Positions 638 through 55,034 of a DNA stretch of 64,000 nt are shown here, piece after piece. The notes below the pieces were generated by a model, which saw nothing but the letters and a program-made list of their open reading frames with translations, was not told the origin of the DNA and did not search any database. Source of the stretch: a virus. Lineage: Duplodnaviria; Caudoviricetes. Positions within the stretch are counted from its first letter, which is position 1, and each line of letters opens with the position of its first letter. A program made the position numbers and the translations under genes. The stretch lies in the IMG/VR virus record IMGVR_UViG_3300037603_000132, positions 708-64,707 of that record; one strand, 5' to 3'.

Positions 638-654
638 ATCACCTATCGGGTGAA
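638..654. promoter_or_regulatory. Operator TCACC-N5-GGTGA upstream of alpA/terS
   Basis: atcacc-tatcg-ggtgaa. Confidence 0.65.
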
Positions 655-687
655 ATATGCTGGCGGTGAGCCAAAGAGAGTCACCGC

Positions 688-7571: not shown

Positions 7572-7610
7572 ACCGCAACCTGGAACCTCGGCCTCGCGGT
7601 CGGACCAACA

Positions 7611-7627
7611 TTCACCTGAAAGGTTAA
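7611..7627. promoter_or_regulatory. Operator upstream of the capsid gene
   Basis: ttcacc-tgaaa-ggttaa. Confidence 0.6.
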
Positions 7628-7629
7628 AA

Positions 7630-8703
7630 ATGACCCTCGACATTTACACCCCGCGCCGCCTGGCGCTGATCCAGCAGGAAGAGAGCCAGACGGTTCGCGC
7701 TTCCCAATGGCTGAATATGTTCTACCCGAACACGTTCAACTCGGACCAGGAACAGATCATGTTCGACAAGATCGACGCCTCGCGCGAGATCGCCCCGTTC
7801 ATGCTTCCGAACCTGCCCGGTAAGCCGATCTACCGCCGCGACGGCGAGCGGATCGAGATGTTCACCCCCGCCTACACCAAGCCCAAGGACTCTGTGGAGC
7901 CGGGCATGGGCATGAAGCGTACCGGGGCCGAACTGGTGGGCCGCACCCCCCAGATGTCGCCCCAAGCGCGGATCGCGGCAGCCGTGGGCGACATCACCCG
8001 CAAGCACATCGACGGCATCGTTCGTCTGTGGGAGTACATGGGCGCGCGCTCCGTCATCGACGGCACGTTCACCGTCCGCTACACCGACAACCCCGCGCAT
8101 GACGTGACTCTGGACTTCGGGCGCGACCCCGGCCACACCATCGTCAAAGGCGCTGGTACGAAGTGGGGCGATGCGGGCGTCAGCGCGTGGGACGACGTGC
8201 AGGAGTGGGTGGACACCGTGTCCGCCGCCGACTACGGCGCGACCCCGACGGACATCTTCATGGGTGCGACCGCCTGGAAGGCGTTCATCGCTGACGCCGA
8301 TGTCCAGAAGCGCCTGGACCGCGACGTGAAGGGCGTTGAGCAGACCATGCTCGACCAGAACCTTATCGTGAAGGACAAGATGCGCCCCTGGACGCTGATG
8401 GGCATGTTCGGCACGATCCGCGTCTGGCTGGTCTCCGGCATCGGCAACACCTTCCAGTCCGGCGGCAACCGCGTGGACATCCTCAAGTCGAACGAGGTGT
8501 TCATCGCCTCTGCGGCTGTGGACGGTGTGCGCGCCTTCGGTGCGATCCGCGACCTGGACTCCCTTGAGGCCGTCGAGATTTTCCCCTCGACCTGGACCGA
8601 GAAGGACCCGAGCCGCCGGTTCCTGATGCACCAGAGCGCGCCTCTGATGATCCCGGTCAACCTCAACGCGACCCTGCGCGCGACTCCGGTCGATCTCCCC
8701 TAA
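7630..8703 (+). CDS. Major capsid protein (gpE family)
   Basis: 357 aa; APFMLP, FTPAYTKPK, HQSAPLMIP motifs. Confidence 0.93.
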   Translation: MTLDIYTPRRLALIQQEESQTVRASQWLNMFYPNTFNSDQEQIMFDKIDASREIAPFMLPNLPGKPIYRRDGERIEMFTPAYTKPKDSVEPGMGMKRTGAELVGRTPQMSPQARIAAAVGDITRKHIDGIVRLWEYMGARSVIDGTFTVRYTDNPAHDVTLDFGRDPGHTIVKGAGTKWGDAGVSAWDDVQEWVDTVSAADYGATPTDIFMGATAWKAFIADADVQKRLDRDVKGVEQTMLDQNLIVKDKMRPWTLMGMFGTIRVWLVSGIGNTFQSGGNRVDILKSNEVFIASAAVDGVRAFGAIRDLDSLEAVEIFPSTWTEKDPSRRFLMHQSAPLMIPVNLNATLRATPVDLP

Positions 8704-28508: not shown

Positions 28509-29417
28509 TCAGGCCAGCAGCGCCTCAATGTCGTCGCTCGGGCACGGCCCCAGCAGGTCCGCCAGGCTGGCGTCCTCCGCGCTGGCGTCCTCCGCGCTGG
28601 GCTGCTCTGCCGTCTCCAAGGTGGTTCCGATGCGCCGGGCGGCGCACTCGGCGTAGTTCGCGGCCAACTCGATCCCGATGAAGCCGCGCCCGGACTCCCG
28701 GGCCGCCACGCCGGTCGCGCCCGTCCCCATGAAGGGGTCCAGGACGATCTCGCCGGGCTGCGTCGAGTTCTCGATGTAGGTCAGCATGAGATTGACCGGC
28801 TTCTCGGTCGGGTGGCTCTTGGGACTGCTCACGTTGTCCCAATCGAGCGGCCAGCCGAACTCTTCCGCGAGCGGCGTGGCGTGGTAGCCCATCGAGTCGT
28901 CGTCCAGCCAGAGCGCCGGATCGTCCAGTGGGTGCGGCTCTACGCTGATCGTGGAGCGTGTGCCCCGGTTGTTGATCGAGAAGGCCCGCCCCTTCCGGGC
29001 GAAGAGCGTCAACTCGGTATCCTTCATGTACCAGCGGTTCGGGGTCGCGTTGTTCTTCCGCCAGAAAAGCAGGTTATGGACGCGGAACCCGGCGCGGGCG
29101 AGATCGCCCAGGATGTCCTTCTCGACCAGATTCAGCACGTTGGTCATCAGGTAGACATGGGCGTCGTCGCGGAGGACGCGGTGGACCTCCGGCAGGTAGG
29201 CGGCGGGCCGGATCGAGTTATGCTCGAAAATCTTGCCGTCGTTCTTTGTGAGGATTCCGCGCGGGCGCTGGTGCGGCCCTTTCCGGTCGGCGTTCGAGCC
29301 GCCGGAGATCGTGGGGTAGGGGGGATCGAATACCGCTGCGTCAACCGACCCGGCGGGCAGGGATTGAAGGGCGGCGATGGCGTCTCCGCAGATCAGACGT
29401 GAACTTTTTTCATCCAT
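28509..29417 (-). CDS. DNA N6-adenine/N4-cytosine methyltransferase, beta class
   Basis: DPPY motif IV near the N-terminus, HPTEKP, LDPFMGTGATG motif I. Confidence 0.92.
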   Translation of the reverse strand: MDEKSSRLICGDAIAALQSLPAGSVDAAVFDPPYPTISGGSNADRKGPHQRPRGILTKNDGKIFEHNSIRPAAYLPEVHRVLRDDAHVYLMTNVLNLVEKDILGDLARAGFRVHNLLFWRKNNATPNRWYMKDTELTLFARKGRAFSINNRGTRSTISVEPHPLDDPALWLDDDSMGYHATPLAEEFGWPLDWDNVSSPKSHPTEKPVNLMLTYIENSTQPGEIVLDPFMGTGATGVAARESGRGFIGIELAANYAECAARRIGTTLETAEQPSAEDASAEDASLADLLGPCPSDDIEALLA

Positions 29418-29535
29418 CTGTGAAACTTTCCCCCGCTCCGCTTCGTTGGCTCTACCCGTTAATTTCACCTTCTGGATTCAAATTCAACCAAAAATTCCTA
29501 CAACCTCGGATTATTTTCGATTGACTTGAATCGGA

Positions 29536-39375: not shown

Positions 39376-39418
39376 ATTCCACAAAAGGTTGACCCGTTGG
39401 GGCAATTGCTCCAAATGT
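39376..39418 (+). promoter_or_regulatory. Early-type promoter with operator
   Basis: ATTCCACAAAAGG-TTGACC-...GGGGCAATTGCTCC. Confidence 0.75.
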
Positions 39419-39452
39419 TGCCCCAGATGAAACGCCAACGGAGATTCGCCAA

Positions 39453-39914
39453 ATGAGCATGACCAAGAAAACAGCCCGCGCCTTCGAGCGCCTGGCGGAG
39501 TCCCTGATTGTTCCCGTCTTGGGGCCGGGGGCGGAGTACCTGGACACCGGACTCGCGTGGTCCTTCCCCTACGCCGACCGGGGCAACGTGTCCTTGCACC
39601 TGTTCCGCGATAGCTTCGACAAGGGGCGCGTCTACCGTTCAAGCTGGCTGGCCTGCCGCTGGAATTGGGACGGCAAAGTCGGCCCCGACCGCTACACCCT
39701 GCCGCGCGCCGACGTGCCCGGCGGCTGGCCCGGCGTGTTCACCTACCCAAGCGGAAAGGCGAATTATCACCCCTTTGACGAACTGGACCCCGAGGCATGG
39801 CGGCGGGAATTGGCGCTGCACCTCTATTCAATCGCCGCGCCTGACTCGAAAGAGCGCGAGGGCTTCGGGGCGATCCAGTTTGAACCCAAGGCCCCGGCGG
39901 TTTGCCACGCCTAA
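39453..39914 (+). CDS. Early hypothetical protein
   Basis: First ORF after the promoter. Confidence 0.65.
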   Translation: MSMTKKTARAFERLAESLIVPVLGPGAEYLDTGLAWSFPYADRGNVSLHLFRDSFDKGRVYRSSWLACRWNWDGKVGPDRYTLPRADVPGGWPGVFTYPSGKANYHPFDELDPEAWRRELALHLYSIAAPDSKEREGFGAIQFEPKAPAVCHA

Positions 39915-39941
39915 CCTTCAACCGAAAAGGAAGATTTCCCC

Positions 39942-40904
39942 ATGGTACAGATTGACCGCTTCGACATCTCGCCCGACGACCCGGCCACCTTCGGCCCCTT
40001 CACCGTCACCCTTGCCCACGACCTAAGCCCGGAAAACCCGTGGGAGGCGTGGCACGCCCAAACCCCCGTAATTTACACCGGGGGCAGCGACGGGCTGACC
40101 GTCCACGACTCCGGGGATGACCTGTTGTCGTTCTTCTCGCACGTCTCGCCCGCGTGGGTTTCCCGCCACTGGCGCAAGCTGGCCGCGATCCTGGACGAGA
40201 CAGAAGAGGACGCCGACCGCATGGCCCGGGAATACGCCGCCGACGTGTCAACCGACATGGGCGACGCCCGGCTGGAGGTCTACCGGGAAAGCTGGGACTC
40301 CTATGTCCGTTACTCCGGTTACACCGTGCGAGTCCTCGAAAAGCTGGAGTCGCTCTACAAGCTGGCCGGTTGGCCGGTCCTTCGCAAAACCGTTTGCGGC
40401 TATTCCCAAAGCGATTGGGCCGACGTGCTGCTAGTCGCCACGCCCGCCCATGCCGCGCGGTGCGGCTATGACTTCGCCGCGCCCGGCTTCGACATGGCCG
40501 AAAGCCTCAAGGGTGACGCGGAGTTGTTGCGCTCGTGGATGTTTGGCGACGTGTACGGCTACACGGTCGAAGGCCCGGACGGCGAGACCGTGGACTCCTG
40601 TTGGGGCTTCTATGGCTGCTATTTTGACGGCGACCCGGCGGGCGGCGGCTACGTCCTAGAGCAGGCGGCGGAGGCCGTCGAGCAAGGCGCGAAGGACTGG
40701 CACGAGAAGGCCGCCGCCCAAGAGGCCGAGGCCCGGGCCGCCTTCCTGCAAACCCGCGCCGAGTGGAAAGAGGCCCGGCGGCACGTCACCGCCGCGCCCG
40801 GGGCCTTGTGCGCCGCCCTTGGCCGTGAATTGCGCCGCATGGCGCGCGAGTGGAAAGAGGCCCGCAAGCTGCGCCGCGACTGCGCCGCGATCCTGGCCGC
40901 CTGA
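39942..40904 (+). CDS. Early hypothetical protein
   Basis: Leader ccttcaaccgaaaagga; long ORF. Confidence 0.7.
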   Translation: MVQIDRFDISPDDPATFGPFTVTLAHDLSPENPWEAWHAQTPVIYTGGSDGLTVHDSGDDLLSFFSHVSPAWVSRHWRKLAAILDETEEDADRMAREYAADVSTDMGDARLEVYRESWDSYVRYSGYTVRVLEKLESLYKLAGWPVLRKTVCGYSQSDWADVLLVATPAHAARCGYDFAAPGFDMAESLKGDAELLRSWMFGDVYGYTVEGPDGETVDSCWGFYGCYFDGDPAGGGYVLEQAAEAVEQGAKDWHEKAAAQEAEARAAFLQTRAEWKEARRHVTAAPGALCAALGRELRRMAREWKEARKLRRDCAAILAA

Positions 40905-40943
40905 CCTATCCCCAAACCTTCAACCGAAAAGGAATATTTCACC

Positions 40944-41807
40944 ATGACAACCGAGACCGAAAGCACCGAACGCCGCGCCCGGCTGGCGCTGCATGACCTG
41001 GCCGACGTGCTGGCCGAACACCTGACAAAGGAGTCCGGCGAAGAGTGGACCGCCGGGCGGGTGGACTACCTGCGCGAGGACTGCCGCGACAAGGACCGCC
41101 AAGGCCGGGCCGCGGTCACCGGGGCCAACTTCACCCGGGCGCGCGACGGCTTCACCCTGCGCCTTTGGCCCTCGAACTATTACAACGAAAAGGACAAGGG
41201 CGGCGCGGGCATTGAGTGGCCGCAAGACCTGGCCCCGGGCCACGCGGCGCGCACCGTCTACCGGCAGGCCCCCGGCGTGGATTATCACGCGGCAGAGCCG
41301 GGAATCGCCTTCACCGTTGAGAAGGCCAAGCCCGCGACCCTCGCCCGCCGGATGCTTAGGGAGTTGACCGGGCCGGAGTATGACCGGGCCTTTGCCGCGC
41401 TCGTGGAGAAATTCGACGCGGAAGAGGCCGCCCGCGAGAAGGGCGAGGAATGGGCCGCGAAGGTCCGGGAGGCCGCCGGGGTCAAGTCGGTTGGCCTCGC
41501 CTCTGAAAGGTATTGGGGCCGCCCCCTCAACGGCGCACGGGTGGCCGTGGGCCGGGAGTCGCAGCATGGCCCCGGCGGCGTGTTGGCGATCCAGCTTCCC
41601 GACGACCCCGACGCGGCGGCCCTCATGGCGGCAGCCCTGCGGGCCGTGGGGGAGGAAGGATACAAGCGCGGAATTGGCGTGGCCGTCCTGGACTTCGACG
41701 GGGCCGACGACGTGGCCGCCCGGCTGGATGCAATGGCCGTACATGCCGCCGAAAACTTGGGCGCGCACGATTGGACTCTGTTCGCGGGGGGCCTTGACGA
41801 TGCTTGA
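40944..41807 (+). CDS. Early hypothetical protein
   Basis: Same leader motif. Confidence 0.7.
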   Translation: MTTETESTERRARLALHDLADVLAEHLTKESGEEWTAGRVDYLREDCRDKDRQGRAAVTGANFTRARDGFTLRLWPSNYYNEKDKGGAGIEWPQDLAPGHAARTVYRQAPGVDYHAAEPGIAFTVEKAKPATLARRMLRELTGPEYDRAFAALVEKFDAEEAAREKGEEWAAKVREAAGVKSVGLASERYWGRPLNGARVAVGRESQHGPGGVLAIQLPDDPDAAALMAAALRAVGEEGYKRGIGVAVLDFDGADDVAARLDAMAVHAAENLGAHDWTLFAGGLDDA

Positions 41808-42537
41808 TGATGTGAGAGTCACCGAACTGGACGGAGGCCGGGCAGAGGTCCGACTCCGGGATACCGTGGCGACGGTTCAACCGAACCCGCACAAGCTGGA
41901 GGCCGAAAGGGCGCTAGAGCGCGCCTTGCGGGTGGAGGCCATGGCCCGCCCGGGTCCCGACCTGGAGCGCGCCAAAGAGGCCCGATATAGGGCGCAGCAA
42001 TGGGCGCGCAGCCATGATGCGTGGACCTACACGACCGGCCACGGGGAGACCTTCTCGCACCCCGACCGGCGCGGCGCGCTGCACATGGCCCGCAAGTGGT
42101 TTGTAGAGGCCGGAATCGTGCTCGTGCCCTTCGACCACTCGCACATGAACCCGGGCGACCGGCTGCGCGCCGTCAAGCTGCAAGAGGCCCGCGACCTGAT
42201 AGCCGGGCCGCGTTGGGGCGATTATGTCCAGTTGCCCGGGCACGTCCGCGCCGTGTCGCGTATCTGCGGCATTTCCCACGACGACGCGCGTTTCGGCCTG
42301 ACCGGCGGCGGGTCCTTCAGCCTGCCGGGGGACGCGGCGCAACTGACGCCCCATTGGGAGTCCTACTCCGGCGCGCTCGATTGGGACTCGGCCTACCGGC
42401 TGGACGACCTGGAGGACGCCGGGCGGCATGAAATGGGCCGTTTCTGGTTCTTCTCGGGCGGCGTCATGGCGGCACACGGCGGCGTTGACGTGGCTTTGCC
42501 CTGCCGGGTGTACCTGCTGAAAGGGGGCCGGGCGTGA
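41800..42537 (+). CDS. Early protein with a C-terminal DUF4121-like domain
   Basis: PRWGDYV...GGGSF...YSGAL...FWFF...AHGGV...PCRVY. Confidence 0.7.
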   Translation: MLDDVRVTELDGGRAEVRLRDTVATVQPNPHKLEAERALERALRVEAMARPGPDLERAKEARYRAQQWARSHDAWTYTTGHGETFSHPDRRGALHMARKWFVEAGIVLVPFDHSHMNPGDRLRAVKLQEARDLIAGPRWGDYVQLPGHVRAVSRICGISHDDARFGLTGGGSFSLPGDAAQLTPHWESYSGALDWDSAYRLDDLEDAGRHEMGRFWFFSGGVMAAHGGVDVALPCRVYLLKGGRA

Positions 42538-42770
42538 GGGCGGCGGAGAAGCCCGCCACGGCCCCGCCCTTGTCCGTCCGGGTCTACCTGGCCGCCCTGG
42601 CCTCTAGGCCGCCCCCACGGCCCCCACAACGGCCCGGGGCAGGGGGCGCGCCATGGTAGCTTGGACTCTCATTATGGCGGGCCTGGGGGCCGCCACGGGC
42701 GACCCGGCGGGCGCGCTTATCGCCTTCGGGGCGTGGTCCTTGGGGGCGGCCTTCCTGGACTAGGGGGATA

Positions 42771-42812
42771 ATTCCACAAAAGGTTGACAGATTGGGGCAT
42801 ATGCCCTAATTC
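42771..42812 (+). promoter_or_regulatory. Early-type promoter with operator
   Basis: ATTCCACAAAAGG-TTGACA-...GGGGCATATGCCCT-AATTC. Confidence 0.8.
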
Positions 42813-42848
42813 AGGAATCAGCGACAACGAAACCCGAGAGGATGACCC

Positions 42849-43160
42849 ATGGACAACCTGAACGAAGCCCGCGCCCGCGCTTATGCCGAAGTTATGCGCG
42901 AGAAAGGCCCTTGCTGCTTTGTGGCCGTGATGCACGACCACGAGGCGCACGACGGGCAAACCCGCTCTTGCTTGGGCGTGGCCGTGGCGAACGAACCGGG
43001 TTACTACCCCGTTCCGCAATTCTACTTCTACGCCGACCGGCACGAGGACGCGGAGACCAAGGCCGACGCGCTCAACCTCGAACTGCTGGAGGTTGACCCG
43101 GCTTTGGCCTTCGCGATTCAGGCGTCCACCATGGGCGGGCGGCCCTGCGTCGCGGCCTGA
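42849..43160 (+). CDS. Early hypothetical protein
   Basis: First ORF after the promoter. Confidence 0.65.
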   Translation: MDNLNEARARAYAEVMREKGPCCFVAVMHDHEAHDGQTRSCLGVAVANEPGYYPVPQFYFYADRHEDAETKADALNLELLEVDPALAFAIQASTMGGRPCVAA

Positions 43161-43225
43161 CCGGGGCCGGGCAGCCCCCGGCCTTCCCCCTTTCCTGACC
43201 TTCACCCAATAGAGGAAAAATCACC

Positions 43226-43720
43226 ATGAAAACGGTTGCTTTCACCCTGACAATCTTTAGCGGCGATGCGGCCTTGTCCGATGATCCCGCGCACGAGTTG
43301 GCCCGCATCCTGCGCGACACGGCGGAGGCGGTCGCGGCCAACGGCGGCGAGTCCTTCACGCGCGATCTTCGCGACTACAACGGACGCAAGGTTGGCGCGT
43401 TCACACTTGAGATTGAGACCCCGGAACCCGAGCCGGTTTTTGTTGTCCGGGACGCGGACGGCGACACCGCCGCCGGGCCGTTCGAGACCGTCGAAGATGC
43501 GCGGGAGTCGGCTTACGAACTGCGCAAGGAACAGCTTGACGAACTGTACGAGGGCGACCCGGCGGGCCGCGAATTGGCCGCGTTCAACGACTCGCCGTTC
43601 ACGGTCACAGCCGCGCCGCGCAACCTCTGCCCCTACTGCGAGAACGAGCGGCCCGGCGAGAACCCGGCGGGGGAAAATGTTTGTTGCAATGTGGCATGGT
43701 CGAAAGGGGGTGACGCATGA
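43226..43720 (+). CDS. Early hypothetical protein
   Basis: RBS gagga. Confidence 0.65.
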   Translation: MKTVAFTLTIFSGDAALSDDPAHELARILRDTAEAVAANGGESFTRDLRDYNGRKVGAFTLEIETPEPEPVFVVRDADGDTAAGPFETVEDARESAYELRKEQLDELYEGDPAGRELAAFNDSPFTVTAAPRNLCPYCENERPGENPAGENVCCNVAWSKGGDA

Positions 43721-44346
43721 CCCGGGCCGCCTTTGTCACCGTCAACACATGCGGCGAGCCGGAGGGCCACGAGACTCCCGAGTCCGCCGTTGCAAAGCAC
43801 CTGCACAACATCGGCGGCGCGTGGAACCTTTTCGGGCATGAACAGCCCCGGACGGAGGCCGACTTGGCCGGGAAGCGCATGGCCCTTTTTGAGTACGTCC
43901 GCCCGGATTGTAGCCCCCTGTTTGCCGCGATCTTCGACAACCGGGCAGACGGGCAGAGCCTCGACAACTACCGCAACCGCCACTTGTGGGGCCGGGCCAA
44001 TTCGGAGTCCTACGTCCAGAAGGCCGAGTCCGCATGGAAAGAGCGCACCGGGCCGCGCGTGGGGGACTACGTGCGCCACCCTGACGGCAAGTTGACCCGC
44101 TTTACATATGATTGGGGCGACGGGCTACAGGCGGGCGGCGGGCGCGGGTCCTACCACCTGACCCGGTGCGGCTTCGCCAGCTACTCCGGCGGCCTGTCCG
44201 CCGGTATCCCGCGCGACCGGCTGACCCGCACGGGCGAGACCATGCCCGGGGAATTTTGGTTCTTTCTCGACGGCTGGACGGGGGCGCACCGGGGGGTCTC
44301 GATCTCGATTCCCTGCCGGGTCTATCAGGAAGGGGGTGCAGCATGA
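43717..44346 (+). CDS. Early protein with a C-terminal DUF4121-like domain
   Basis: GPRVGDYVRHPDGKLTRFTYDWGDGLQ...YSGGL...FWFF...AHRGV...PCRVY. Confidence 0.75.
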   Translation: MTRAAFVTVNTCGEPEGHETPESAVAKHLHNIGGAWNLFGHEQPRTEADLAGKRMALFEYVRPDCSPLFAAIFDNRADGQSLDNYRNRHLWGRANSESYVQKAESAWKERTGPRVGDYVRHPDGKLTRFTYDWGDGLQAGGGRGSYHLTRCGFASYSGGLSAGIPRDRLTRTGETMPGEFWFFLDGWTGAHRGVSISIPCRVYQEGGAA

Positions 44347-44585
44347 CGACGGAGCGAGTCCCGGTCGCGGCGATTGAACCCGGCGACACGGTTTTGATTG
44401 ACGGGGTGGCCCGGACGGTTTGCCGCCGCGATCTCGCCCGCGACTCCTTTTTCCCGGCGCGCGTTTTCGGCCAGCACTTCCACGAGGCGGGCCGCACGGT
44501 TGAGCGGGTACTTTTCCCGGTTTGGTTCCGGGGGAAACTCATAAGACACGCGGCCCAAATTGGGGCCGGAACAGCAAGCGAATAG
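44343..44585 (+). CDS. Early hypothetical protein
   Basis: Coupled ATG. Confidence 0.55.
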   Translation: MTTERVPVAAIEPGDTVLIDGVARTVCRRDLARDSFFPARVFGQHFHEAGRTVERVLFPVWFRGKLIRHAAQIGAGTASE

Positions 44586-44594
44586 GAATCGAAA

Positions 44595-45392
44595 ATGCAA
44601 AATCTTGAATCGAAAACCGGAATCGAAAAACCGGAATCGGTGGACCCCTACCGCCTGTTGTCCGACCGCTGGCTAGAGCCGCTGGACGACGTGACAGGCC
44701 CCGACCGGGGACGGGTCCGCACCGCCGCCGAGTGGTGCAACCTGCTGGCCCCTGCCGACAAGTGGCACCACGCCGGAGAGTTGGTTTTTCTGGTCCGTGG
44801 CCCCGGCGGCTTTGGCTACCTGCTGGAGGTTGAACTTGACGACGACACGCCCGCCAAGTCTGCCGAGGGCGTGGAGACCGTCCGCCGGGCGGTCGCGGCG
44901 GTCGCGCCGGGCGGCGTCTTTTCCTACGTGGCCCCGGGGACTGACTACATTTACGACGGGCGGGCCGCCTATCGGGTTTTCTTCGCCGGTATCAAGCCCG
45001 CGCCCGAGATAGAGGCCGCCGCAAGCGCGATCTTTGACCTTGTGTACCCGGTCGCGGATAGCCCGGAGGCCGCGCCCGCCGCGATCCCCGACGACCTGGC
45101 CGCCGCGCTCGACGGGATAACGGACACCTACACCGCCCTTGTTGTCGAAGAGAGCAGCCCGCGCCCGCCGGTTTCCCGTGACCCGCTCTTGTACGTTGTG
45201 GAGGCGGCAAGCCCGAACGACGAGTCCGCGATCCTGGAGCAAGCGGCGGCGCAGCGTTGCGAGGAATTGGGCCTTGATCTGGACGACGACGGCGCGCCGG
45301 ATCGGGCGGCGGTCGAAGAGGTCAAAGCGGGACTCCGGCTTATCTTGGTCCTGCCGGGCGACGTGTCCCCGGTTTGGGGCGGGCGGCAATAG
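44595..45392 (+). CDS. Early hypothetical protein
   Basis: 265-aa ORF with RBS. Confidence 0.65.
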   Translation: MQNLESKTGIEKPESVDPYRLLSDRWLEPLDDVTGPDRGRVRTAAEWCNLLAPADKWHHAGELVFLVRGPGGFGYLLEVELDDDTPAKSAEGVETVRRAVAAVAPGGVFSYVAPGTDYIYDGRAAYRVFFAGIKPAPEIEAAASAIFDLVYPVADSPEAAPAAIPDDLAAALDGITDTYTALVVEESSPRPPVSRDPLLYVVEAASPNDESAILEQAAAQRCEELGLDLDDDGAPDRAAVEEVKAGLRLILVLPGDVSPVWGGRQ

Positions 45393-45610
45393 CCGGGGCC
45401 AGGACCGTCTAGGGGCACAAAGTAGAGGACCGGCTAGGGGTCCAAAGTAAGGCCCGCGCGTACACCCCCGCGCGGGCCTATGCACGTCCGGGCGCGGGCG
45501 CACACGGGCACACGCGCGCACCTGGGCGCACACATACGCGCGCAGGCGGGCGGGCGCGGGCACACGGGCGCGCGCGGGCGCGGGCTGGCAGGGGCGCGGA
45601 TAGGGAAAGC

Positions 45611-45800
45611 CCGGCAGGGGCCAGCCCGGCGATCTCGTGCCCGGCAGGGGCCAGCCCGGCGATCTCGTGCCCGGCAGGGGCCAGCCCGGCGATCTCGTGC
45701 CCGGCAGGGGCCAGCCCGGCGATCTCGTGCCCGGCAGGGGCCAGCCCGGCGATCTCGTGCCCGGCAGGGGCCAGCCGGGCGATCTCGTGCCCGGCAGGGG
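45611..45800 (+). repeat. Tandem array of about 6.3 x 30 bp (ccggcaggggccagcccggcgatctcgtgc)
   Basis: Directly visible; one substitution in the sixth unit. Confidence 0.97.
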
Positions 45801-45845
45801 ATTATTCCACGAACGGTTGACGGATTGGGGCATTTGCCCTAAATC
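45801..45845 (+). promoter_or_regulatory. Early-type promoter with operator
   Basis: ATTCCACGAACGG-TTGACG-...GGGGCATTTGCCCT-AAATC. Confidence 0.8.
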
Positions 45846-45916
45846 TGATTCCACGGGCCGCCGCTGGCCCGCGACCGGGCCGCCCGCTGGCCCTTCACCT
45901 GAAAGGGGAAAATTGA

Positions 45917-46042
45917 ATGAAAACTATCCTTGCACAACCCGGACTCGCGGAAAGCCTTGAACTCTGGATTCAGGGGAACCCCGGGGCCGCCATTTTCGCC
46001 GGGGCCGCCGCAATCGGTGCCTTTTTTCATTTCTACGGATAA
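45917..46042 (+). CDS. 41-aa hydrophobic peptide
   Basis: Hand translation MKTILAQPGL...GAFFHFYG; RBS aagggga. Confidence 0.5.
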   Translation: MKTILAQPGLAESLELWIQGNPGAAIFAGAAAIGAFFHFYG

Positions 46043-46053
46043 GGGGAAACGGA

Positions 46054-46410
46054 ATGTTTGACGCCATGGAAATTCAGGAAGAAATAAACTTTGCGATTGA
46101 ATCCGCTGACTCCGCCATGCCGGAAAACTTGCGCCGGTTGCGCCGCTTGGCCCTTTCCGATCTCGACGGCGGCCCGGTCTATCTGGACGCGGACGGCGAC
46201 CCGGTTTCTCGCTTTGATGAAGGGGCGCGCCGGTTTGATTTTGAGGGGGCCTGTAATTCGCTTTCCGATTGGGCCGACTCCCACATTAACGATGTTTCGA
46301 TTGAAACGGACTATTGCGAGGAAACGGACGAGTCGACGTTTGAAACGATTGACGGGTCCGGCGACACAATCCGCCGCGCGGTTTTCGGGCCGCTCGTGAA
46401 TTACATCTGA
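46054..46410 (+). CDS. Early acidic hypothetical protein
   Basis: RBS aagggga. Confidence 0.65.
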   Translation: MFDAMEIQEEINFAIESADSAMPENLRRLRRLALSDLDGGPVYLDADGDPVSRFDEGARRFDFEGACNSLSDWADSHINDVSIETDYCEETDESTFETIDGSGDTIRRAVFGPLVNYI

Positions 46411-46417
46411 AAGGGGA

Positions 46418-46633
46418 ATGGGAATGGACATTGGCGATATTGAACCGCGCGCTTGCTATCTGGACGGAATGTACGGACGCAAGGAAGCCCTTTGCTACAT
46501 GGCCCCGGCAAGCGTCACGGCGGCCCCGGGTTGCATCAAGGAAGAGGGGGGCGGAATCTCCATAATGGTGAACCGCGCCACGATTGAATCCCGTTTCGCA
46601 TGGGATGAAAAGCCAACCTTCTATTACAGCTAA
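46418..46633 (+). CDS. Early hypothetical protein
   Basis: RBS upstream. Confidence 0.55.
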   Translation: MGMDIGDIEPRACYLDGMYGRKEALCYMAPASVTAAPGCIKEEGGGISIMVNRATIESRFAWDEKPTFYYS

Positions 46634-46644
46634 GGACTCGAACG

Positions 46645-46926
46645 ATGGAAAAGAAAACAGCATATTTGCACTATGGCGGCCCGGGCACGGTTGACGGCCC
46701 TAACGGCCCGCGCCGGACGGTTGAGACGGAATTGCGCGAAACGGAATTGCCGCAATCGGGCCGGACGGTTTCCGGCTATGGGGCGAAACTGCCGACTCCC
46801 TACATGGTCAAGCGGTTCGGGAAATGGCGGCGGGTTTATGCGGCCTGCTATGGCAACGCCGCGAGTCACTATATCGGAAAGCCCGGCGCATGGCTGGCAA
46901 CCGTTCAAATTGTGGAGTCGAACTGA
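46645..46926 (+). CDS. Early hypothetical protein
   Basis: RBS aagga. Confidence 0.65.
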   Translation: MEKKTAYLHYGGPGTVDGPNGPRRTVETELRETELPQSGRTVSGYGAKLPTPYMVKRFGKWRRVYAACYGNAASHYIGKPGAWLATVQIVESN

Positions 46927-47192
46927 TGCAAATTGAAACCTACACATTGCCGGAACATTGGCTTTCCGCGCTATTCAATGGCGACGACTCCGGGCTGGAC
47001 GAATCCGATTGCGAGGCGTTGGAGGCTTTCACCGACTCCGTGGTGGCGGACTATGGGCAGGCTTGGCCGGTTGATTATGACGAGTCCGGGGCCGGTTTCA
47101 TGCGCTACCATGATGCGCAACCGTTCGGAGTCCTTGCTTGCGATTGCGTGGAGGTATCTTTCGACGTGACACAAAGGGGGGCCGCAGCATGA
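46926..47192 (+). CDS. Early acidic hypothetical protein
   Basis: MQIETYTLPEHWLSALFNGDDSGLD...; coupled start. Confidence 0.65.
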   Translation: MQIETYTLPEHWLSALFNGDDSGLDESDCEALEAFTDSVVADYGQAWPVDYDESGAGFMRYHDAQPFGVLACDCVEVSFDVTQRGAAA

Positions 47193-47575
47193 CCACGAAA
47201 CCGCTCTACGCTCGCCTTGCCGCGCAACTGGACATAATCCGCCGCAATGCCGACTCGCTTGATCCTTTCGCGGATATGGCCCGCGACCGGGTGGAGTCCA
47301 TGGTCCGGGACTACCTGCCGTCCGGGGCCGGTTTCGACTCCGGTTGTTATGTCGAGATTGAGGAGTCGCGCCGGGATAAAATTGTTATCCGTTGTGACTT
47401 TCACCATATGGCCGAGTCCGGCATGTATTCCGGTTGGACGACTCACCGGGCCATTGTGACGCCGGACCTTGCGGACGGTTTCGCCCTGCGCATCACCGGC
47501 AAGGATCGAAACGGAATAAAAGAATATATCGCGGACGTGATGGACTCCGCCCTGAATATGGAGATTGAACAATGA
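47189..47575 (+). CDS. Early hypothetical protein
   Basis: LPSGAGFDSG...FHHM...GWT...ITGKDRN; coupled start. Confidence 0.7.
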   Translation: MTTKPLYARLAAQLDIIRRNADSLDPFADMARDRVESMVRDYLPSGAGFDSGCYVEIEESRRDKIVIRCDFHHMAESGMYSGWTTHRAIVTPDLADGFALRITGKDRNGIKEYIADVMDSALNMEIEQ

Positions 47576-48615
47576 CTCGCGCAACCGTGTTTCCCTATTT
47601 TGAGAACGCCGGACTCTTTGACGCAATCGCGGCCCGGCTGGCCCCTTTCGGTTTCCGGGATGTATCTTTCTCCGGCCTGCCGTGCCCGGCGTTGGAGTAT
47701 ATCACGCCAGACGGAGTCCCGGTTTCGGTCGCGGTTGACGGTATCACGGCCCGGGGCTTTCCGGCCCTTGACCCGTCGCGGCCCGTGCTGATCCAGTTGG
47801 ACGGAGTCGACGTGGGCCAGTTTGCGGACGTGGAGTCGTCCGTCGCGGCGGCCCTTGTGACTCTCCATTCGATCCGGGCTGATGCTTTCGGCATGGGCTT
47901 TGATTTCCCAATCTTGCGCGACCCGTCCTTTGCCCGGGCCGCCGAAACAATCCGCGATCTGAATAACGCCGGACTCCTTTGGCATATGGACGAGTCGCCG
48001 GACTCCATCGTTACCAGTATCGGCGGCGCGCGGCTCTTCACGCGGCAGCAATGCGAAACCTTGGAACGGGTCCGGGATTCATTGTGGGCCGTCAATTGGG
48101 GGGAAACCTTTGAAGATATTCACGGCTATTGCCTTCACGCGCAAGGGCACTGGCCCCTGCTAGGGGCGGAGTCCGGCGATCTCGACTCTTTCCTTGCGGC
48201 CCATTGCGCGCGGCGCGGTTTCCCACTGGACGGGTTGGACGCGGCCCGGGTTGATATGGGGGCCTTTCTGGCCCATGCCTTTTCCGGTCGCCGGGGCGAG
48301 ATAAGCCCTTTTGACGCGGCATACGTCGCGGACGAAACACTGGCGGATTGCATGGGCGGAAACCTCAATCTGCCGGGCTTCACATATCACGCGGCGGGGG
48401 GCGATTGCCGGGCATTGCGGGCCGTTCGGAATGGGATTGAATGGCTGATCTGCACTAGCGGCGACGGGGGCCAGATACCCGTTGCCGGGGCCGCCGGGAC
48501 TCTTTCCGCTTTCGACGTGGAGTCCGGCAACGAAAGGGGGGAATGGCATTTACCGCCGGGGGGCGTGACTCCGGGAGTCGTCCAGTACCTTATGGCGCGC
48601 CACGGCAGCCGATAG
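47572..48615 (+). CDS. Early hypothetical protein (last gene before the cos region)
   Basis: 347-aa ORF; coupled start. Confidence 0.65.
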   Translation: MTRATVFPYFENAGLFDAIAARLAPFGFRDVSFSGLPCPALEYITPDGVPVSVAVDGITARGFPALDPSRPVLIQLDGVDVGQFADVESSVAAALVTLHSIRADAFGMGFDFPILRDPSFARAAETIRDLNNAGLLWHMDESPDSIVTSIGGARLFTRQQCETLERVRDSLWAVNWGETFEDIHGYCLHAQGHWPLLGAESGDLDSFLAAHCARRGFPLDGLDAARVDMGAFLAHAFSGRRGEISPFDAAYVADETLADCMGGNLNLPGFTYHAAGGDCRALRAVRNGIEWLICTSGDGGQIPVAGAAGTLSAFDVESGNERGEWHLPPGGVTPGVVQYLMARHGSR

Positions 48616-48708
48616 AGCGCGCCACACAAGCCGATTGAACGCAAGCCGGGCCGTTGTGCCCGGCTTTCGCTTGTCCGGCCCATGGGCGGCCCTGCGGCGG
48701 CCCCTGCG

Positions 48709-49141
48709 GCGATCTCGTGGCCCGTGGTGGCCCATGCCCTAGCGGCGGCCCGTGGTGGCGATCTCGTGGCCCCTGCGGCGGCCCTGCGGCCCGTGGTGGC
48801 CCTTTCCCCTATCCCCTGACCTATGGCGGCCCCTGCGGCCCGGCTGGCCCCTGCCGTGCGATCTCGTGCCCGGCTGGCCCGTGGTGGCGACCTCGTGCCC
48901 GGCTGGCCCGTGGTGGCGATCTCGTGCCGGGGCGGGGCCAGGTAAAGCCGGGGCCAGGTGAAGCCGGGGCCAGGCACGGGGGGCGGACGTGGTGGCGCGA
49001 CTCCGTCCGGCGATCTCGTGCCGGGCTGGCCCCTGCCGTGCGATCTCGTGCCCGGCGATCTCGTGCCCGGGTGGAATGGGCAGGGGGCGGTTGACGGGTG
49101 GACGGGTGGACGTGGTGGACGGGTGGCCCGGCGATCTCGTG
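48709..49141 (+). repeat. Dispersed co-oriented GCGATCTCGTG repeats (8 exact, 1 variant)
   Basis: Copies at 48709, 48758, 48858, 48887 (variant), 48916, 49010, 49040, 49055 and 49131. Confidence 0.9.
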
Positions 49142-49301
49142 CCCGGGTGGACGGGTGGCCCGGCATTGAGGGGGGCGAGGGGCCGCCGGTCTAGCGCGCG
49201 TGGGATTGTCCCTGAATCCGGGAATAACTGTTCATTGGGTGATTCGTGGGCTTGTCAAGCCTTGACATTGGGTCCCATCCAGGCGAATCGGGCTGACGCG
49301 G

Positions 49302-49313
49302 GGTGCGCAGAGC
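49302..49313 (+). other. Putative cos site (GGTGCGCAGAGC)
   Basis: Exact 12-mer I recall as the cohesive end of phage chi and relatives; lies in the long non-coding gap between the early genes and the primase, as in chi-like genomes. Confidence 0.75.
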
Positions 49314-49640
49314 GCGATGTTAGACGATTCCGCACAGAACCCATAGGGCATCCGCCGATATGATGCGGTTCCCTTCATGTTGTGAGCCGATAATGTGAGC
49401 AAACCTAATGATTTAGGTGCAAATGCCCCAATAGTCCGTGCATCTATGCACAGGGGGTCCCTTGGTCTCGCGAGTGGCCGGGTGGCTGCTCCAGAACACA
49501 GGTCGGGTCAAGCGAAATCCAGCGGGCCGGTGCATTTTGTTCGGGGCGATCCGGCTGGCGATCTCGGGCCGTGGCTCCCGGATTCCGTTCTACCAAAAAT
49601 GGTTTTCCAGTCTGCCTAGAAGGACACCCGCCGGGCTAGG

Positions 49641-49908
49641 TGTTCCATTGTTCCGAGGTGTTCCATTGACCCGGAAATTTAATGGAACACCCTCAGACCC
49701 CTTATTTATATGGGGAAAACGGGTCCCTGTTCCATTGTTCTATTAGAATCTACAGAATTAGAAAATGAGATAGAGGGAGGGACCACTGGTTGTTTACCGA
49801 TTAAACTACAATGACTCGCCCCTCCCTTTCACTGGCCTCTATAGGGGAATCTAATGGAACACGAGAACACCCCCCGGTAAGCGGTTCCCAAACCCCTTAT
49901 TTATATGG
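49641..49908. repeat. Five TGTTCCATT copies in both orientations plus a duplicated ACCCCTTATTTATATGG
   Basis: Copies at 49641, 49659, 49681 (rc), 49728 and 49853 (rc); 17-mer at about 49697 and 49892. Confidence 0.8.
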
Positions 49909-50057
49909 CGATTTCGAGGGGTCGAGGTGTTCTAACAAATTTCGGCCCTCCAAGAGAACACCCCGGAATCCGGGCGCAAAAGCGCGGCAAGCGCGCCGGG
50001 CTACCCGGATTCCACCCAAATTCGGGACACAACAAAAACCGGATTGCGGAAAAAACG

Positions 50058-50082
50058 AAAAACCCGGCCTTTCAGCCGGGTT
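50058..50082 (-). terminator. Intrinsic terminator downstream of the primase
   Basis: aacccggc-ctttca-gccgggtt stem with a U tract on the minus strand. Confidence 0.7.
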
Positions 50083-50117
50083 CTACGAAAGCAGGAATTG
50101 CTCGGATTCGGAGTCTG

Positions 50118-52901
50118 TCAGCCCAGCAGATCGTCAATCTCGGCGGCCTCGTCGGCCTCGTTTTCCGCCGGAGCCTCGATCCAACGCGGCCCATCGCTGT
50201 TGCGGAAGAACCACACGGCGTTCTGCCCGTGGCGGCGCTTCTTCGGCATTTCCGTCCAGCCCGCGATCAGCTTGAGAGCCTTTCCGTAGGTCCGGGCGTC
50301 CGCGTTGCGATAGGGCTGGAGGATGGGGTCCAGACGCACGGCCTCATAGGCTTCGCGAGCCGTCACCATGTTCCGGTACACCAGGCGCTCGTCGTCGTCG
50401 TCCGCCGCGAAGCCGTCCGCGTCCACGATCACGTCGGTGGCCTTGTAGGGCGTGTCCAGCCACTCCTGGATCACCTCTGCGATGGTCTCGGTCGCCGTGT
50501 GGCGGCGGTTGCGCTCTGCGATCTGGCGCTGCTCGATGATCGCCTCGCGATCCTTGAGGCCGAGGTGCAGCGGCTTGGTTCCGGCGGCCTCGCGGGCGTC
50601 CAGGTAGGCTTGATACGCCTCGCCCCAGATCATCGCCCGGTTCGAGATCAGGAGGTCCTGGTCGATCTGGTCATACTCGTCGCCTTTGGCCTCCCAGACC
50701 CAGAAGCGGCGGACGGAGGTGGGATCGCTCAGAAAGTCGTCGTCGTTCGAGGTGGCCGCCATGACGGACTGGCGCGGGAAAGACATCTCCCGCCGCCCGT
50801 AGGCCAGGCGGATCGTGTCCTGCTGGGCGGAGAGGAAGTCCTTGACGACGTTGTTGTCGCCCCGGGCCTTCGACATCTCCGCGACCTCCATGAGCCAGTT
50901 GCCCCGCATCTGTTCGACGGCGCGGTCGATCTTCTCCATGTCCACGCGGAACTCGGAGAAGAACGCATCGGTCACGAGGTTGCGCAGGAAGGTCGATTTA
51001 CCGGCCCCTGTGAGGCCGCGCACGATCAACATCTGGTCGAATTTGCAGCCCGGCTCGTAGATGCGCGCCACCATGCCCATGAGGAAGAGCCGCGAGGACT
51101 CCCGGTGAAAGATCGTGTCGAGGCAGCCGAGGTAGGTCTGCGGCAGGCTGTTGATGTAGCCCGTCGGGGAGCCTGCGGCTTTCCACTCCTCCCAATGCCC
51201 CTCGATCATGTCCTTGACCGGGTGGATGGTGTTCTGCCGCCCAGCGGCCAGCACGGCGTCCTGGACGTTCTGGGTGGAGAAGTCGGTCTCGAACCCGGCC
51301 CGCCCCATGTTCGCGGAGCAGATCAGCTTGATCGACGTGTCGTCCGCGTCGGTCCAGCGCCGCCCGATCTTCTGCTCGATCTTGTTGAGCGGCGGCGAGG
51401 GCAGCTTGATCTTGGAGGACCTGATCTGCTTGAGGCAAACCGGGTCCATGGTGAACTCGTTGTAGCCGATTGCGTCACGCAACCGGGAATCGTTCTCGCA
51501 GATCAGGGTGACGTTGTTCAGGACCGGCTCCAGGTCGCCGTTGGCCTTCTTGCGAAGGTGGATCGACCAGCCCGTGCCCTTCTCCTTTTTCTTCTTCTTC
51601 TTGGGCTTCTCCTCCTCGTCCTCGTCGTCATCATCGAACTCGTCAGCGATGTCGCGCGGCCCGTCGCTCGCGCCGTCGTCATCGCCCGGCGCGGGGCCGA
51701 GGAGGTCGTCCAGATCGGAGTCCGCGGACTCGGATTTCCGGGGCTTGTCGCCCGGCCCATCGTCGTCGGGATCGTCGTCGTCCTCGTCCTCGTCGTCATC
51801 GAACTCGTCGCGCAGGTAGGAGAACAACTCGGCGGCAACCGCCTGATCCTCGTTCGCGAACTTGCTCATGGCCTTGAAGGACGGCAGGTTGGCGGGTGAG
51901 GTGTTGGCGGGGGACTTCTCGTCCAGGTGGCCGAACTTGTGGAGCCGCACGAGGTCGAAGGCGTTATGCAGGCCCTCCGCCGGGTCGGTCCCGTGGTTGG
52001 AGTGGAGGAACAGCCCGTCGTCATAGACCACGGCCCCGTTCGACCCCGAGCCTCCGGTGTAGGTGTAACGCGTCTCCGTTGCGCTCGTGCCCGGCGCGTA
52101 GATGTCGTCCAGGAACTCCGCAATCGCCTCCTCGACATCGTAGGCGCGGCAGAAGGCCCCGATCACCCCCGGCTTCTCGTGGGGATGCTCCATCTTGCGG
52201 TTGGGATCGACAACCCCGCGCTCGCGCTCGTCCTCCTGGTAAGGCAGGTAGGTGTAGTCCTCCCAGCCGTCATGCTGGGCCAGGTACTCGTCCACGTCGA
52301 GGATCGCGCCGCCCGGGTTGTCCTCCATCCAGTATTCCTGGCCCTTGGAGATCGAGGGCTTGAACATGACTTGGTTGAAGCGGAAGGAGACGAGATCGGG
52401 AATCTCGATAGCCTCGTCGGGATCGTCGGCCAGTTCGAGGGCCACCAGGCGGGTCAGCGCGTGGGTCTCGGTCGCGTCCATCGGTCGGCTGACCGGGATG
52501 ATGATGCGGACGCGCGGCTTCTCCGGGCAATGCGCCCGGGTCGTGTGCATGATCCAGTACCATTGGCTGATCTCGGCCAGCCCGAGGCGGATATGGTCAA
52601 GCTGGTCGATGGACACATAGTCCAGATCGAACGCGAGCATCGTCCGGTACTTCTGGTGGTCCAGCTTGCGCTTCCCGTCGCGGAAGTGCGCGGCCATCCA
52701 GTAGCCCGGGTATCGCTTCTTCTCCAGCTTGGCGTCCTGGTCCAGCGCCATGTACTGCGCGAAGGTGACGGACGTATCCACCATCGGCTCGGCCAGCAGG
52801 CGCTTGAAGCGCGCAAGGGTGGATTCCCGGTTCTTCACGCGCCCGAGGCCGGAGCCGGTGTTCACGCAATACTTGACCAGGTGGTTTTCGATGTCGCTCA
52901 T
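50118..52901 (-). CDS. Primase / VapE-like helicase (virulence-associated E domain)
   Basis: AFDLD, HTTRAH...RVRIIIP primase motifs; PGCKFDQMLIVRGLTGAGKST; RRFWV. Confidence 0.9.
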   Translation of the reverse strand: MSDIENHLVKYCVNTGSGLGRVKNRESTLARFKRLLAEPMVDTSVTFAQYMALDQDAKLEKKRYPGYWMAAHFRDGKRKLDHQKYRTMLAFDLDYVSIDQLDHIRLGLAEISQWYWIMHTTRAHCPEKPRVRIIIPVSRPMDATETHALTRLVALELADDPDEAIEIPDLVSFRFNQVMFKPSISKGQEYWMEDNPGGAILDVDEYLAQHDGWEDYTYLPYQEDERERGVVDPNRKMEHPHEKPGVIGAFCRAYDVEEAIAEFLDDIYAPGTSATETRYTYTGGSGSNGAVVYDDGLFLHSNHGTDPAEGLHNAFDLVRLHKFGHLDEKSPANTSPANLPSFKAMSKFANEDQAVAAELFSYLRDEFDDDEDEDDDDPDDDGPGDKPRKSESADSDLDDLLGPAPGDDDGASDGPRDIADEFDDDDEDEEEKPKKKKKKEKGTGWSIHLRKKANGDLEPVLNNVTLICENDSRLRDAIGYNEFTMDPVCLKQIRSSKIKLPSPPLNKIEQKIGRRWTDADDTSIKLICSANMGRAGFETDFSTQNVQDAVLAAGRQNTIHPVKDMIEGHWEEWKAAGSPTGYINSLPQTYLGCLDTIFHRESSRLFLMGMVARIYEPGCKFDQMLIVRGLTGAGKSTFLRNLVTDAFFSEFRVDMEKIDRAVEQMRGNWLMEVAEMSKARGDNNVVKDFLSAQQDTIRLAYGRREMSFPRQSVMAATSNDDDFLSDPTSVRRFWVWEAKGDEYDQIDQDLLISNRAMIWGEAYQAYLDAREAAGTKPLHLGLKDREAIIEQRQIAERNRRHTATETIAEVIQEWLDTPYKATDVIVDADGFAADDDDERLVYRNMVTAREAYEAVRLDPILQPYRNADARTYGKALKLIAGWTEMPKKRRHGQNAVWFFRNSDGPRWIEAPAENEADEAAEIDDLLG

Positions 52902-54281: not shown

Positions 54282-55034
54282 ATGACCCGACCCGACACCA
54301 ACCCCAAATCCGTTTTCGGCGCGGCCAAGCCGGGTATCTCCGCGATCCCGCCGGTCGCGCTTCTGCATTGTGGGCGCGGCATGGAGGACGGCGAGCGCAA
54401 ATACGGCCTGACCAACTGGCGCGAGAACAGCGTGGCCGCCTCGGTCTACTACAACGCGGCCTTCCGGCACCTCGCGTCCTGGTGGGACGGCGAGCAGAAG
54501 GCGCAGGACTCCGGGGTTCACCACCTCGGGCACGTCATGGCCTGCTGCGCGATCCTGCTGGACGCCGAGGTCCAGGGGGTCCTCATTGACGACCGCCCGC
54601 CGGTCCCCGGCCAGTTCTCCCGCATGGTCGCGGAGATGACGCGGAAGATCGAGGAGGCCGCCAAAAGCGACCTTTGCGAGGACGAAGGCTGCCCCCACCA
54701 CGGGACGCCGCATATCTGCGTCAACTCCATCTTGCCGGAGGGGTTCGAGGACCGGCTGATGGCCGCCATGGGGGTCCCCGGGCGTCTGTTGGCTGCTGAC
54801 AACTCCGACGAGGCCCCCGCCGCCGTTGCCGTGGGCCGGGAGTTCAAGTCCGAGGAAGAGTTCAAGAGTTTCGTGAGGGACTTTCTGGCGTACACCATGC
54901 CGGGCTTCTCCGCGCGCCGGATGTACGTGTTCAAGTGGCTGGACGCCAACAACTACGACCGGGTGGCCGAGGTCGCCAAAGGCCAATGGCGCGAGTTGGC
55001 GAACCACCTCAACCAGTACGAGGCCGCCGACTGA
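54282..55034 (+). CDS. dATP/dGTP diphosphohydrolase-domain protein (DUF5664-like) with a C-terminal extension
   Basis: NPK...KPG...G..KYG..NWR...AAFRHL..W..GE..DSGVHHLGHVMAC. Confidence 0.85.
   Translation: MTRPDTNPKSVFGAAKPGISAIPPVALLHCGRGMEDGERKYGLTNWRENSVAASVYYNAAFRHLASWWDGEQKAQDSGVHHLGHVMACCAILLDAEVQGVLIDDRPPVPGQFSRMVAEMTRKIEEAAKSDLCEDEGCPHHGTPHICVNSILPEGFEDRLMAAMGVPGRLLAADNSDEAPAAVAVGREFKSEEEFKSFVRDFLAYTMPGFSARRMYVFKWLDANNYDRVAEVAKGQWRELANHLNQYEAAD

Follow-up and report, generated by a model that had tools for sequence, protein, structure and literature searches.

DNA-level selection for GAGTC and GACTC in the terminal small-gene arm of a putative Chi-like prophage and its relatives

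Why should a phage crowd one short word into the genes nearest one end of its genome, when bacteria of its likely host group both methylate that word and avoid it? The question is raised by IMG/VR virus record IMGVR_UViG_3300037603_000132, of which we analysed 64,000 nucleotides (positions 708 to 64,707; hereafter the window), covering nearly all of a 64.7-kb provirus record that, to judge from its sequence, is a temperate Chi-like (Casjensviridae) prophage of a marine Rhodobacterales bacterium. In this window GANTC, the target of the adenine methylase CcrM, becomes dense in an arm of small genes that runs up to the predicted cos end, and we find that the density reflects positive selection at the DNA level for a short, strand-symmetric word, confined to the terminal small-gene arm, graded toward cos and tied to host lineage.

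The first-pass annotation had counted 41 GANTC sites in 45841–48600, and our recount gives exactly this number (14.9/kb, against about 2.7/kb in the bulk of the window); its eight sites in 1–3060 are likewise reproduced (2.6/kb), and its approximately 29 sites in 39.4–44.6 kb stand as an elevation but not as a count, the recount of 39400–44600 being 32 (6.2/kb). The full window holds 234 GANTC (3.66/kb), with one to four in most 1-kb bins. Markov models of order 1–2 trained on 45841–48600 itself predicted 12.9–13.8 GANTC and 3.4–6.4 GA[CG]TC (GASTC), and the observed 41 and 34 were reached in 0 of 1,000 runs; an order-3 model takes up the signal itself and is uninformative.

As these figures indicate, 34 of the 41 sites in this core region are GASTC. 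GACTC/GAGTC is the top-enriched pentamer there, with 34 occurrences against 4.9 expected from the remainder of the window (sevenfold), and ranks first among 60 words of equal base composition; GAATC/GATTC (GAWTC) is enriched just 1.8-fold, at mid-rank. The enrichment previously ascribed to GANTC as a whole therefore holds for the GASTC subset and not for GAATC/GATTC, which is not specifically enriched: all 41 sites fit the CcrM target pattern, and GASTC is the selected part of it. On the sense strand GAGTC and GACTC occur in a ratio of 15:19 in the core and 94:101 over four phage arms, far from the strong orientation bias of a polar DNA word, and for want of strand bias we rejected an RNA-level or polar signal (Chi or KOPS-type words). 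No extended motif was found around the sites, where the flank preferences are weak (G before, C or G after) because TCC/TCG serine codons produce them, and there is no convincing 10.5-bp periodicity of the kind expected for SeqA-type binding, the spacing being Poisson-like (coefficient of variation 0.8–1.0). Unbiased strands, no extended motif and no phasing together make the pattern that a short symmetric methylation word would give. A longer motif or repeat family was also considered as the source and discarded, as flanks were codon-derived only and a repeat search found just unrelated iterons, and so were ribosome-binding sites (GGAGTC), which only 3 of 13 gene starts possess.

The word is written through codons. 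Thirty-seven of the 41 core sites are intragenic, and the codon controls used the six open reading frames (ORFs) over 46054–48615 (2532 nt) that contain these 37 sites. Shuffling synonymous codons with the proteins kept gave 24.0 ± 2.2 GANTC (maximum 32 in 2,000 shuffles), shuffling codon order gave 11.0 ± 3.0, and recoding by bulk-phage codon usage gave 18.8 ± 2.6. The excess over both synonymous and codon-order shuffles means that proteins and synonymous choices have both been bent toward the word, and the enrichment thus persists under the amino-acid and codon controls that the first-pass annotation had proposed as its check. Asp/Glu-Ser dipeptides number 23 in these ORFs against 7.8 expected (threefold over-represented); their serine is encoded by TCN in 23 of 23 cases, compared with 22 TCN to 7 AGY elsewhere (p = 0.013), and the Asp/Glu codon preceding TCN is GAC/GAG rather than GAT/GAA by 19 to 4, compared with 52:52 elsewhere (p = 0.005). 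The sites therefore arise largely as had been suggested, from GAC-TCC and GAG-TCC/TCG codon pairs.

The rise toward cos noted earlier is real and proceeds stepwise by transcription unit: GANTC stands at the background of ~2.6/kb in 34.2–39.4 kb and then at ~5, ~6.5 and 14.9/kb in the three units nearest cos. The enriched domain consequently extends over ~39.4–48.65 kb, of which the span first reported, 45841–48600, is the densest part and not the limit. Its core, the GASTC-dense module at 45841–48650, would be the final early transcription unit before cos, and its shoulder, at 39400–45840, comprises the two upstream units (~5–6.5 GANTC/kb). Shoulder genes carry 20 GASTC against 12.5 in synonymous and 6.6 in codon-order shuffles, the observed count being reached in at most 8 of 1,000 runs. 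Fifteen bulk genes outside the arm carry 28, against 25.2 (synonymous) and 31.8 (codon-order), which is neither excess nor avoidance; GAATC/GATTC in these same ORFs is about twice its synonymous expectation (23 vs 12.2).

The transcription units themselves are marked by a palindrome, GGGGCAWWTGCCCY, present at five places in the window (34212, 39399, 42794, 45827–45840 and 49416) against 0.26 expected; the first four copies head successive rightward units, the one at 45827–45840 heading the densest. These palindromes are probably early promoter operators. They are not conserved in the relatives, bar one copy in the Ruegeria phage vB_RpoS-V16 (V16). Within the shoulder, at 44586–44640, a tandem GAATCGAAAAACCG repeat runs over the beginning of the gene at 44595 and contains four GAATC spaced 13–21 bp apart, which may form a methylation-sensitive regulatory element.

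The label 'early genes' given to the arm at first is apt by position. In Serratia phage JS26, cluster 1 (gp01–gp13) is transcribed 5 minutes post-infection (PMC8754663), and the arm is the positional counterpart of this terminal cluster; on the strength of this synteny, the arm of the window is probably expressed early as well.

The same enrichment is found in related phages. The opening 8 kb of V16 contain 90 GANTC (16, 16, 11, 12, 8, 8, 10 and 9 per kb) against 2.8/kb elsewhere, the opening 6 kb of Ruegeria phage DSS3-P1 contain 60 and the final 3 kb of Rhodobacter phage RcPacific contain 32, and in all three arms GACTC/GAGTC ranks 1–3 among words of equal composition (4.7–6.5-fold, the median word being at 0.64–0.75). 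Synonymous shuffles never reached the observed GASTC counts either in V16 genes 01–16 (47 vs 17.6 ± 3.0) or in RcPacific genes 91–98 (20 vs 5.0 ± 1.7). The gene content of these three arms and that of the window largely differs, and in DSS3-P1 other genes carry the sites; homologues of three genes of the densest module are found at the extreme left end of V16. Arm orthologues (48–72% amino-acid identity) contain three to eight sites each, of which just 0–2 lie at the same codon and phase, and since site number is retained while the sites turn over, it is density that is conserved and not position. A Loktanella phage shows a short version, with 11 sites in its final 0.96 kb. Outside the arms of V16, DSS3-P1 and RcPacific, CTAG is rare; pentamers that contain it are 3–13 times commoner within these arms, which may be under a different compositional regime.

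Relatives that infect enterobacteria, FSL SP-030, Enc34 and Seifer, show no GANTC enrichment. Their homologous arms (55.7–59.7 kb, 43334–50000 and 46073–50000, respectively) instead contain GATC, the site of Dam, the orphan methylase of enterobacteria, at 2.0–2.5 times the density of the rest of the genome, ranking first or second of 16 words of equal composition and exceeding synonymous shuffles in all three (47 vs 34.7, 42 vs 23.8 and 26 vs 15.2). The enriched word thus shifts with the host methylase while its location is constant. No stretch rich in GANTC is seen in the Achromobacter relative AchV4. Its small genes near the primase gene, at 38–44 kb, are nearly devoid of GATC (0, 0, 1, 1, 2 and 1 in successive kilobases, where the rest of the genome averages about 5.5/kb), a bias opposite to that in phages of Dam hosts. 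A search for further relatives through the primase gene was unproductive, the IMG/VR scan giving distant loci only and the genome scan a single Ruegeria aquimaris element without a GASTC arm, probably an element of another kind.

CcrM and its reader GcrA, which the first-pass annotation had brought in from Alphaproteobacteria at large, have counterparts in the host genus of the relatives: a genome of Ruegeria aquimaris codes for GcrA and for a CcrM-like methylase of full length (644 bits), and GcrA is present in nine of nine Rhodobacterales genomes searched (that genome and eight others). The expected under-representation of GANTC in hosts is also seen in the genomes sampled. In 240 kb of R. 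aquimaris, GANTC occurs at 1.06/kb, GASTC at 0.33/kb (observed/expected 0.15) and GAWTC at 0.73/kb (0.60); over four Rhodobacterales genomes, observed/expected values are 0.14–0.20 for GASTC, an about six-fold depletion, and 0.23–0.60 for GAWTC. A survey of marine Alphaproteobacteria agrees, with GANTC subsets depleted where they are methylated, and Rhodobacteraceae methylating all four (Hiraoka et al., PMC8919816). The arm therefore exceeds the host genome about 25–35-fold in the density of a word which hosts both methylate and avoid. Two other Rhodobacterales genomes, with weaker GcrA matches, have GAATC/GATTC 2–3 times over-represented and GASTC mildly depleted (0.53–0.76).

The window also encodes a methylase of its own. 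The beta-class enzyme reported near 28509–29417 is present on the minus strand at 28509–29468, a predicted N6/N4 DNA methyltransferase of 319 amino acids with an N6_N4_Mtase domain whose best solved relative is CcrM (6PBD, 1e-23, catalytic domain only); it has orthologues in DSS3-P1 and V16 (67%) and in the Loktanella phage (51%). Methylases with GANTC specificity are documented in phages, often in those of such hosts (PMC5537653). No homologue of GcrA is encoded in the window; the Rhizobium phage RHph_X2_30 (Casjensviridae, Sinorhizobium) carries an annotated GcrA-like regulator (7562–8206) and a DNA methylase.

We consider the leading explanation, at chances slightly below even, to be that the GASTC sites were selected for adenine methylation that marks or times the early arm. 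Adenine methylation is favoured because the word is symmetric, because the host methylates and avoids it, because its counterpart in Dam hosts is the Dam word, and because phages of such hosts often carry a GANTC methylase. On this explanation, an arm of ~9 kb of small early genes would have been selected at the DNA level for dense GAGTC/GACTC, with its peak in the 2.8 kb next to cos; host CcrM, together perhaps with the phage beta-class methylase, would methylate the sites and create a methylation-dense tract, fully methylated in parental or prophage DNA and hemi- or unmethylated in newly replicated copies; and readout of this state would set the timing of early-gene activity or license it, or would engage a host factor. 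Alternatively, an early operon of the prophage could be coupled to replication-fork passage through its methylation state. That methylation is the relevant property, that it has a reader, and that the arm is early, first-entering or both, we infer.

Several observations weigh against this explanation. CcrM has no central-base preference (PMC3287173), so its writing alone fails to explain a GASTC-only pattern, in which GAATC/GATTC stays at or under the synonymous expectation in three sets of arm genes (6 vs 7.1, 15 vs 19.7 and 5 vs 6.3); that only G/C-centred sites are selected implies a reader or a second agent with that preference. The context that GcrA prefers, YGAKTCK (PMC4647560), fits only 4 of the 34 GASTC, 20 of the 34 have G at position −1, and the sites are intragenic, not at sigma-70 promoters as in GcrA-activated methylated promoters. 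With so few sites in YGAKTCK and the sites inside genes, a GcrA decoy or a promoter role finds no support. At 99.8 bits, the phage methylase falls far short of the NCBIfam equivalog cut-off for CcrM (830) and is a distant relative, not an orthologue, of that enzyme, and the methylases of RcPacific are not close homologues of the phage enzyme. The Sinorhizobium relative RHph_X2_30 has only a weak arm (GASTC threefold over 7 kb), the GATC parallel is modest (twofold) and comes from three phages related to each other, and the host figures come from Rhodobacterales genomes at large rather than from the prophage's own host. Finally, the iterons lie on the arm side of cos (see below), and if they resemble lambda cosB in this respect, the arm could be the end that enters the capsid first and the cell last.

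The G/C-centred preference is also what a first rival would explain directly. GAGTC could be read as a word by a protein outside CcrM methylation, such as a PleI/MlyI/N.BstNBI-type nuclease or defence factor or a DNA-binding protein, and the arm would then either divert that protein as a decoy or sponge or provide it with sites for binding or nicking. The same specificity in four phages fits this proposal, as does the lack of GASTC avoidance in the phage bulk (28 vs 25–32 expected), and the stronger depletion of GASTC than of GAWTC in Rhodobacterales (0.14–0.20 vs 0.23–0.60) indicates that some cellular agent distinguishes the two. However, dense restriction sites would be harmful unless modified, strand bias and extended context are absent, in phages of Dam hosts it is GATC that is in excess, which points to orphan-methylase words as a class, Rhodobacteraceae methylate all GANTC subsets with depletion following methylation (PMC8919816), and the nuclease or reader remains hypothetical in this system. 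We therefore regard such a reader as unlikely, if still the strongest of the rivals.

Less likely again, and in our view quite improbable, is that the sites are cis-signals for genome mechanics beside cos, whether for packaging or termination, methylation-gated cos cleavage as in P1 pac, an origin, or DNA entry (a T5-like first-step-transfer segment bounded by the iteron array at 45609–45800). The density does peak in the 2.8 kb between that array and the predicted cos, circularisation would place the arm beside a low-GC region and the primase gene, and alphaproteobacterial chromosomal origins are GANTC-rich too (PMC9836097); but the enrichment covers ~9 kb of coding DNA with Poisson-like spacing, its extent tracks early transcription units and not distance alone, DSS3-P1 carries it in a different gene set, and known pac, cos and ori signals are compact. 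A passive by-product, whether of a donor with other oligonucleotide usage or of acidic Asp/Glu-Ser-rich proteins whose codons spell GANTC, has the least chance of all and is effectively excluded by the synonymous tests and site turnover, for although the core is lower in GC (0.55–0.60 vs 0.65 in the bulk) and weaker in codon bias, its proteins are acidic with a threefold excess of Asp/Glu-Ser dipeptides and CTAG-containing words are relatively commoner in arms, shuffles never reach the observed counts in the core, V16 and RcPacific (at most 8 of 1,000 runs in shoulder genes), the TCN serine and GAC/GAG choices are context-specific, the trait is common to non-homologous gene sets in four phages, orthologues turn sites over yet retain density, and a density 4–7 times random expectation is more than relaxed avoidance.

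The genes of the core offer few hints of function. All six lie on the plus strand: an acidic 118-amino-acid product (46054–46410; 60% identity to V16 gp03, no family match), a 71-amino-acid product (46418–46633; no family match), a 93-amino-acid product (46645–46926; phrog_3436, function unknown, and 77% identity to RcPacific gp92), an ORF at 46947–47192 with an uncertain start (alternative ATG at 46824; 56% identity to V16 gp02), a 128-amino-acid product (47189–47575; 57% identity to V16 gp01) and, as the final gene before cos, a 347-amino-acid product (47572–48615) with no family or informative atlas match. Searches of Pfam, NCBIfam and PHROGs with the arm genes returned nothing beyond that one family of unknown function, and atlas scores were low.

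The cos end itself is predicted at about 48.8–49.3 kb (48770–49300), within or just past a degenerate iteron array, because the ends of V16 and DSS3-P1 map there. Two co-oriented plus-strand iteron arrays with the core GGCGATCTCGTGCC, which includes GATC, flank the densest module: array A at 45609–45800 (6.4 near-perfect 30-bp copies) and array B at 48700–49150 (~9 degenerate copies). In DSS3-P1, cos falls between the sequences that match the iteron arrays, and as sequences matching both sides of the densest unit sit near that cos, the densest module is missing there. Between the predicted cos and the primase gene, the low-GC non-coding stretch 49200–50115 has 10 GAATC/GATTC within 0.9 kb where the bulk averages about 1.2/kb, and several of the 10 fall within CCGGATTCC-type hairpins or repeats; the R. 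aquimaris element has a similar GAATC/GATTC cluster right after its primase gene (13–14 kb).

Placement in the Casjensviridae draws on terminase and layout. The large terminase (1848–3947, plus strand; Pfam GpA_ATPase and GpA_nuclease) is of the lambda gpA type characteristic of the family, with 79.5% identity to TerL of DSS3-P1 and V16 and 45–55% to TerL of other Casjensviridae. A VapE-type primase/helicase gene (50118–52901, minus strand) serves as a synteny anchor across cos, and DUF2800/PD-(D/E)XK, family-A polymerase and SNF2 helicase genes are also encoded. The order is that of the family (primase, replication genes, terminase and structural genes, lysis genes, then the small-gene arm up to cos), colinear with RcPacific and Salmonella phage FSL SP-030 and reverse-colinear with V16 and DSS3-P1. 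In these four phages, as in the window, small and mostly unannotated genes are transcribed toward one genome end, which adjoins, across cos, the 3′ end of the primase gene. The gene at 54282–55034 carries a MazZ-type dATP/dGTP diphosphohydrolase N-terminal domain (PF18909), which led us to consider a Z-base (2-aminoadenine) genome; this is unlikely because the record has no PurZ/adenylosuccinate-synthetase homologue. ARAGORN called a tRNA-Arg(CCT) within the terminase ORF (3083–3175) and a tRNA-Thr(GGT) opposite the methylase ORF (29240–29312), both probably false positives.

The significance of the arm lies in its direction: phage genomes are usually discussed as avoiding the methylation and restriction words of their hosts, and here one such word, reduced six-fold in the host, reaches up to seven-fold enrichment within a single functional arm, at codon and even amino-acid cost, in phages of two Rhodobacterales host genera and with a weaker GATC counterpart in phages of Dam hosts. 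Full-text literature searches found no account of a GANTC- or GASTC-rich early arm. The wider proposition, that phages of hosts with orphan adenine methylases (CcrM or Dam) build a kilobase-scale, codon-encoded island of the target word over the early operon by the genome end, is doubtful at present; if true, the island would be a new class of epigenetic cis-element, by which phage or cell could tell parental or prophage DNA from new copies, or it would hijack or titrate host methyl-reading machinery in the first minutes of infection. Should methylation indeed be used, this would be a testable case of a virus taking a host cell-cycle epigenetic mark as a cis-acting signal. The isolated phages DSS3-P1, V16 and the RcPacific group are available as test material, and Ruegeria pomeroyi DSS-3 is a tractable host. 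In uncultured alphaproteobacterial phages, GASTC density also gives a simple signature by which to locate early arms and the ends of genomes.

Among known systems, the closest in genome plan are the Chi-like phages themselves (DSS3-P1, V16, RcPacific, the Salmonella Chi group and Serratia JS26), which share layout, gpA-type terminase, cos ends and terminal small-gene arm; what differs from their published accounts is the word bias of the arm, undescribed in the literature searched. The CcrM/GcrA module of Alphaproteobacteria, with Caulobacter as the model, has in common the GANTC word, both proteins in the host genus of the relatives, host avoidance and possible timing information, but its known functional sites are single promoter sites in YGAKTCK, whereas the phage arms hold 60–90 intragenic sites, G/C-centred only and mostly outside that context. 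Phage-borne CcrM mimics with GANTC specificity, from Sinorhizobium phiLM21 and Paracoccus prophages, have been characterised as enzymes, with no regional enrichment of target sites described. Like oriC (11 GATC in 245 bp), Caulobacter Cori and P1 pac with its methylation-gated cleavage, the arm concentrates the target word of an orphan methylase at one locality, next to a genome end or origin-like region. Those systems use their site clusters as methylation-state sensors, but they are compact (about 0.15–0.25 kb), non-coding and partly phased, in contrast to the kilobases of coding DNA, unphased and built from codons, that make up the arm. Enterobacteriophages avoid GATC. Some pelagiphages are depleted of GANTC (PMC9516812). 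Such counter-selection and the arm share selection on the same methylation words but differ in sign, the arm being strongly and locally enriched.

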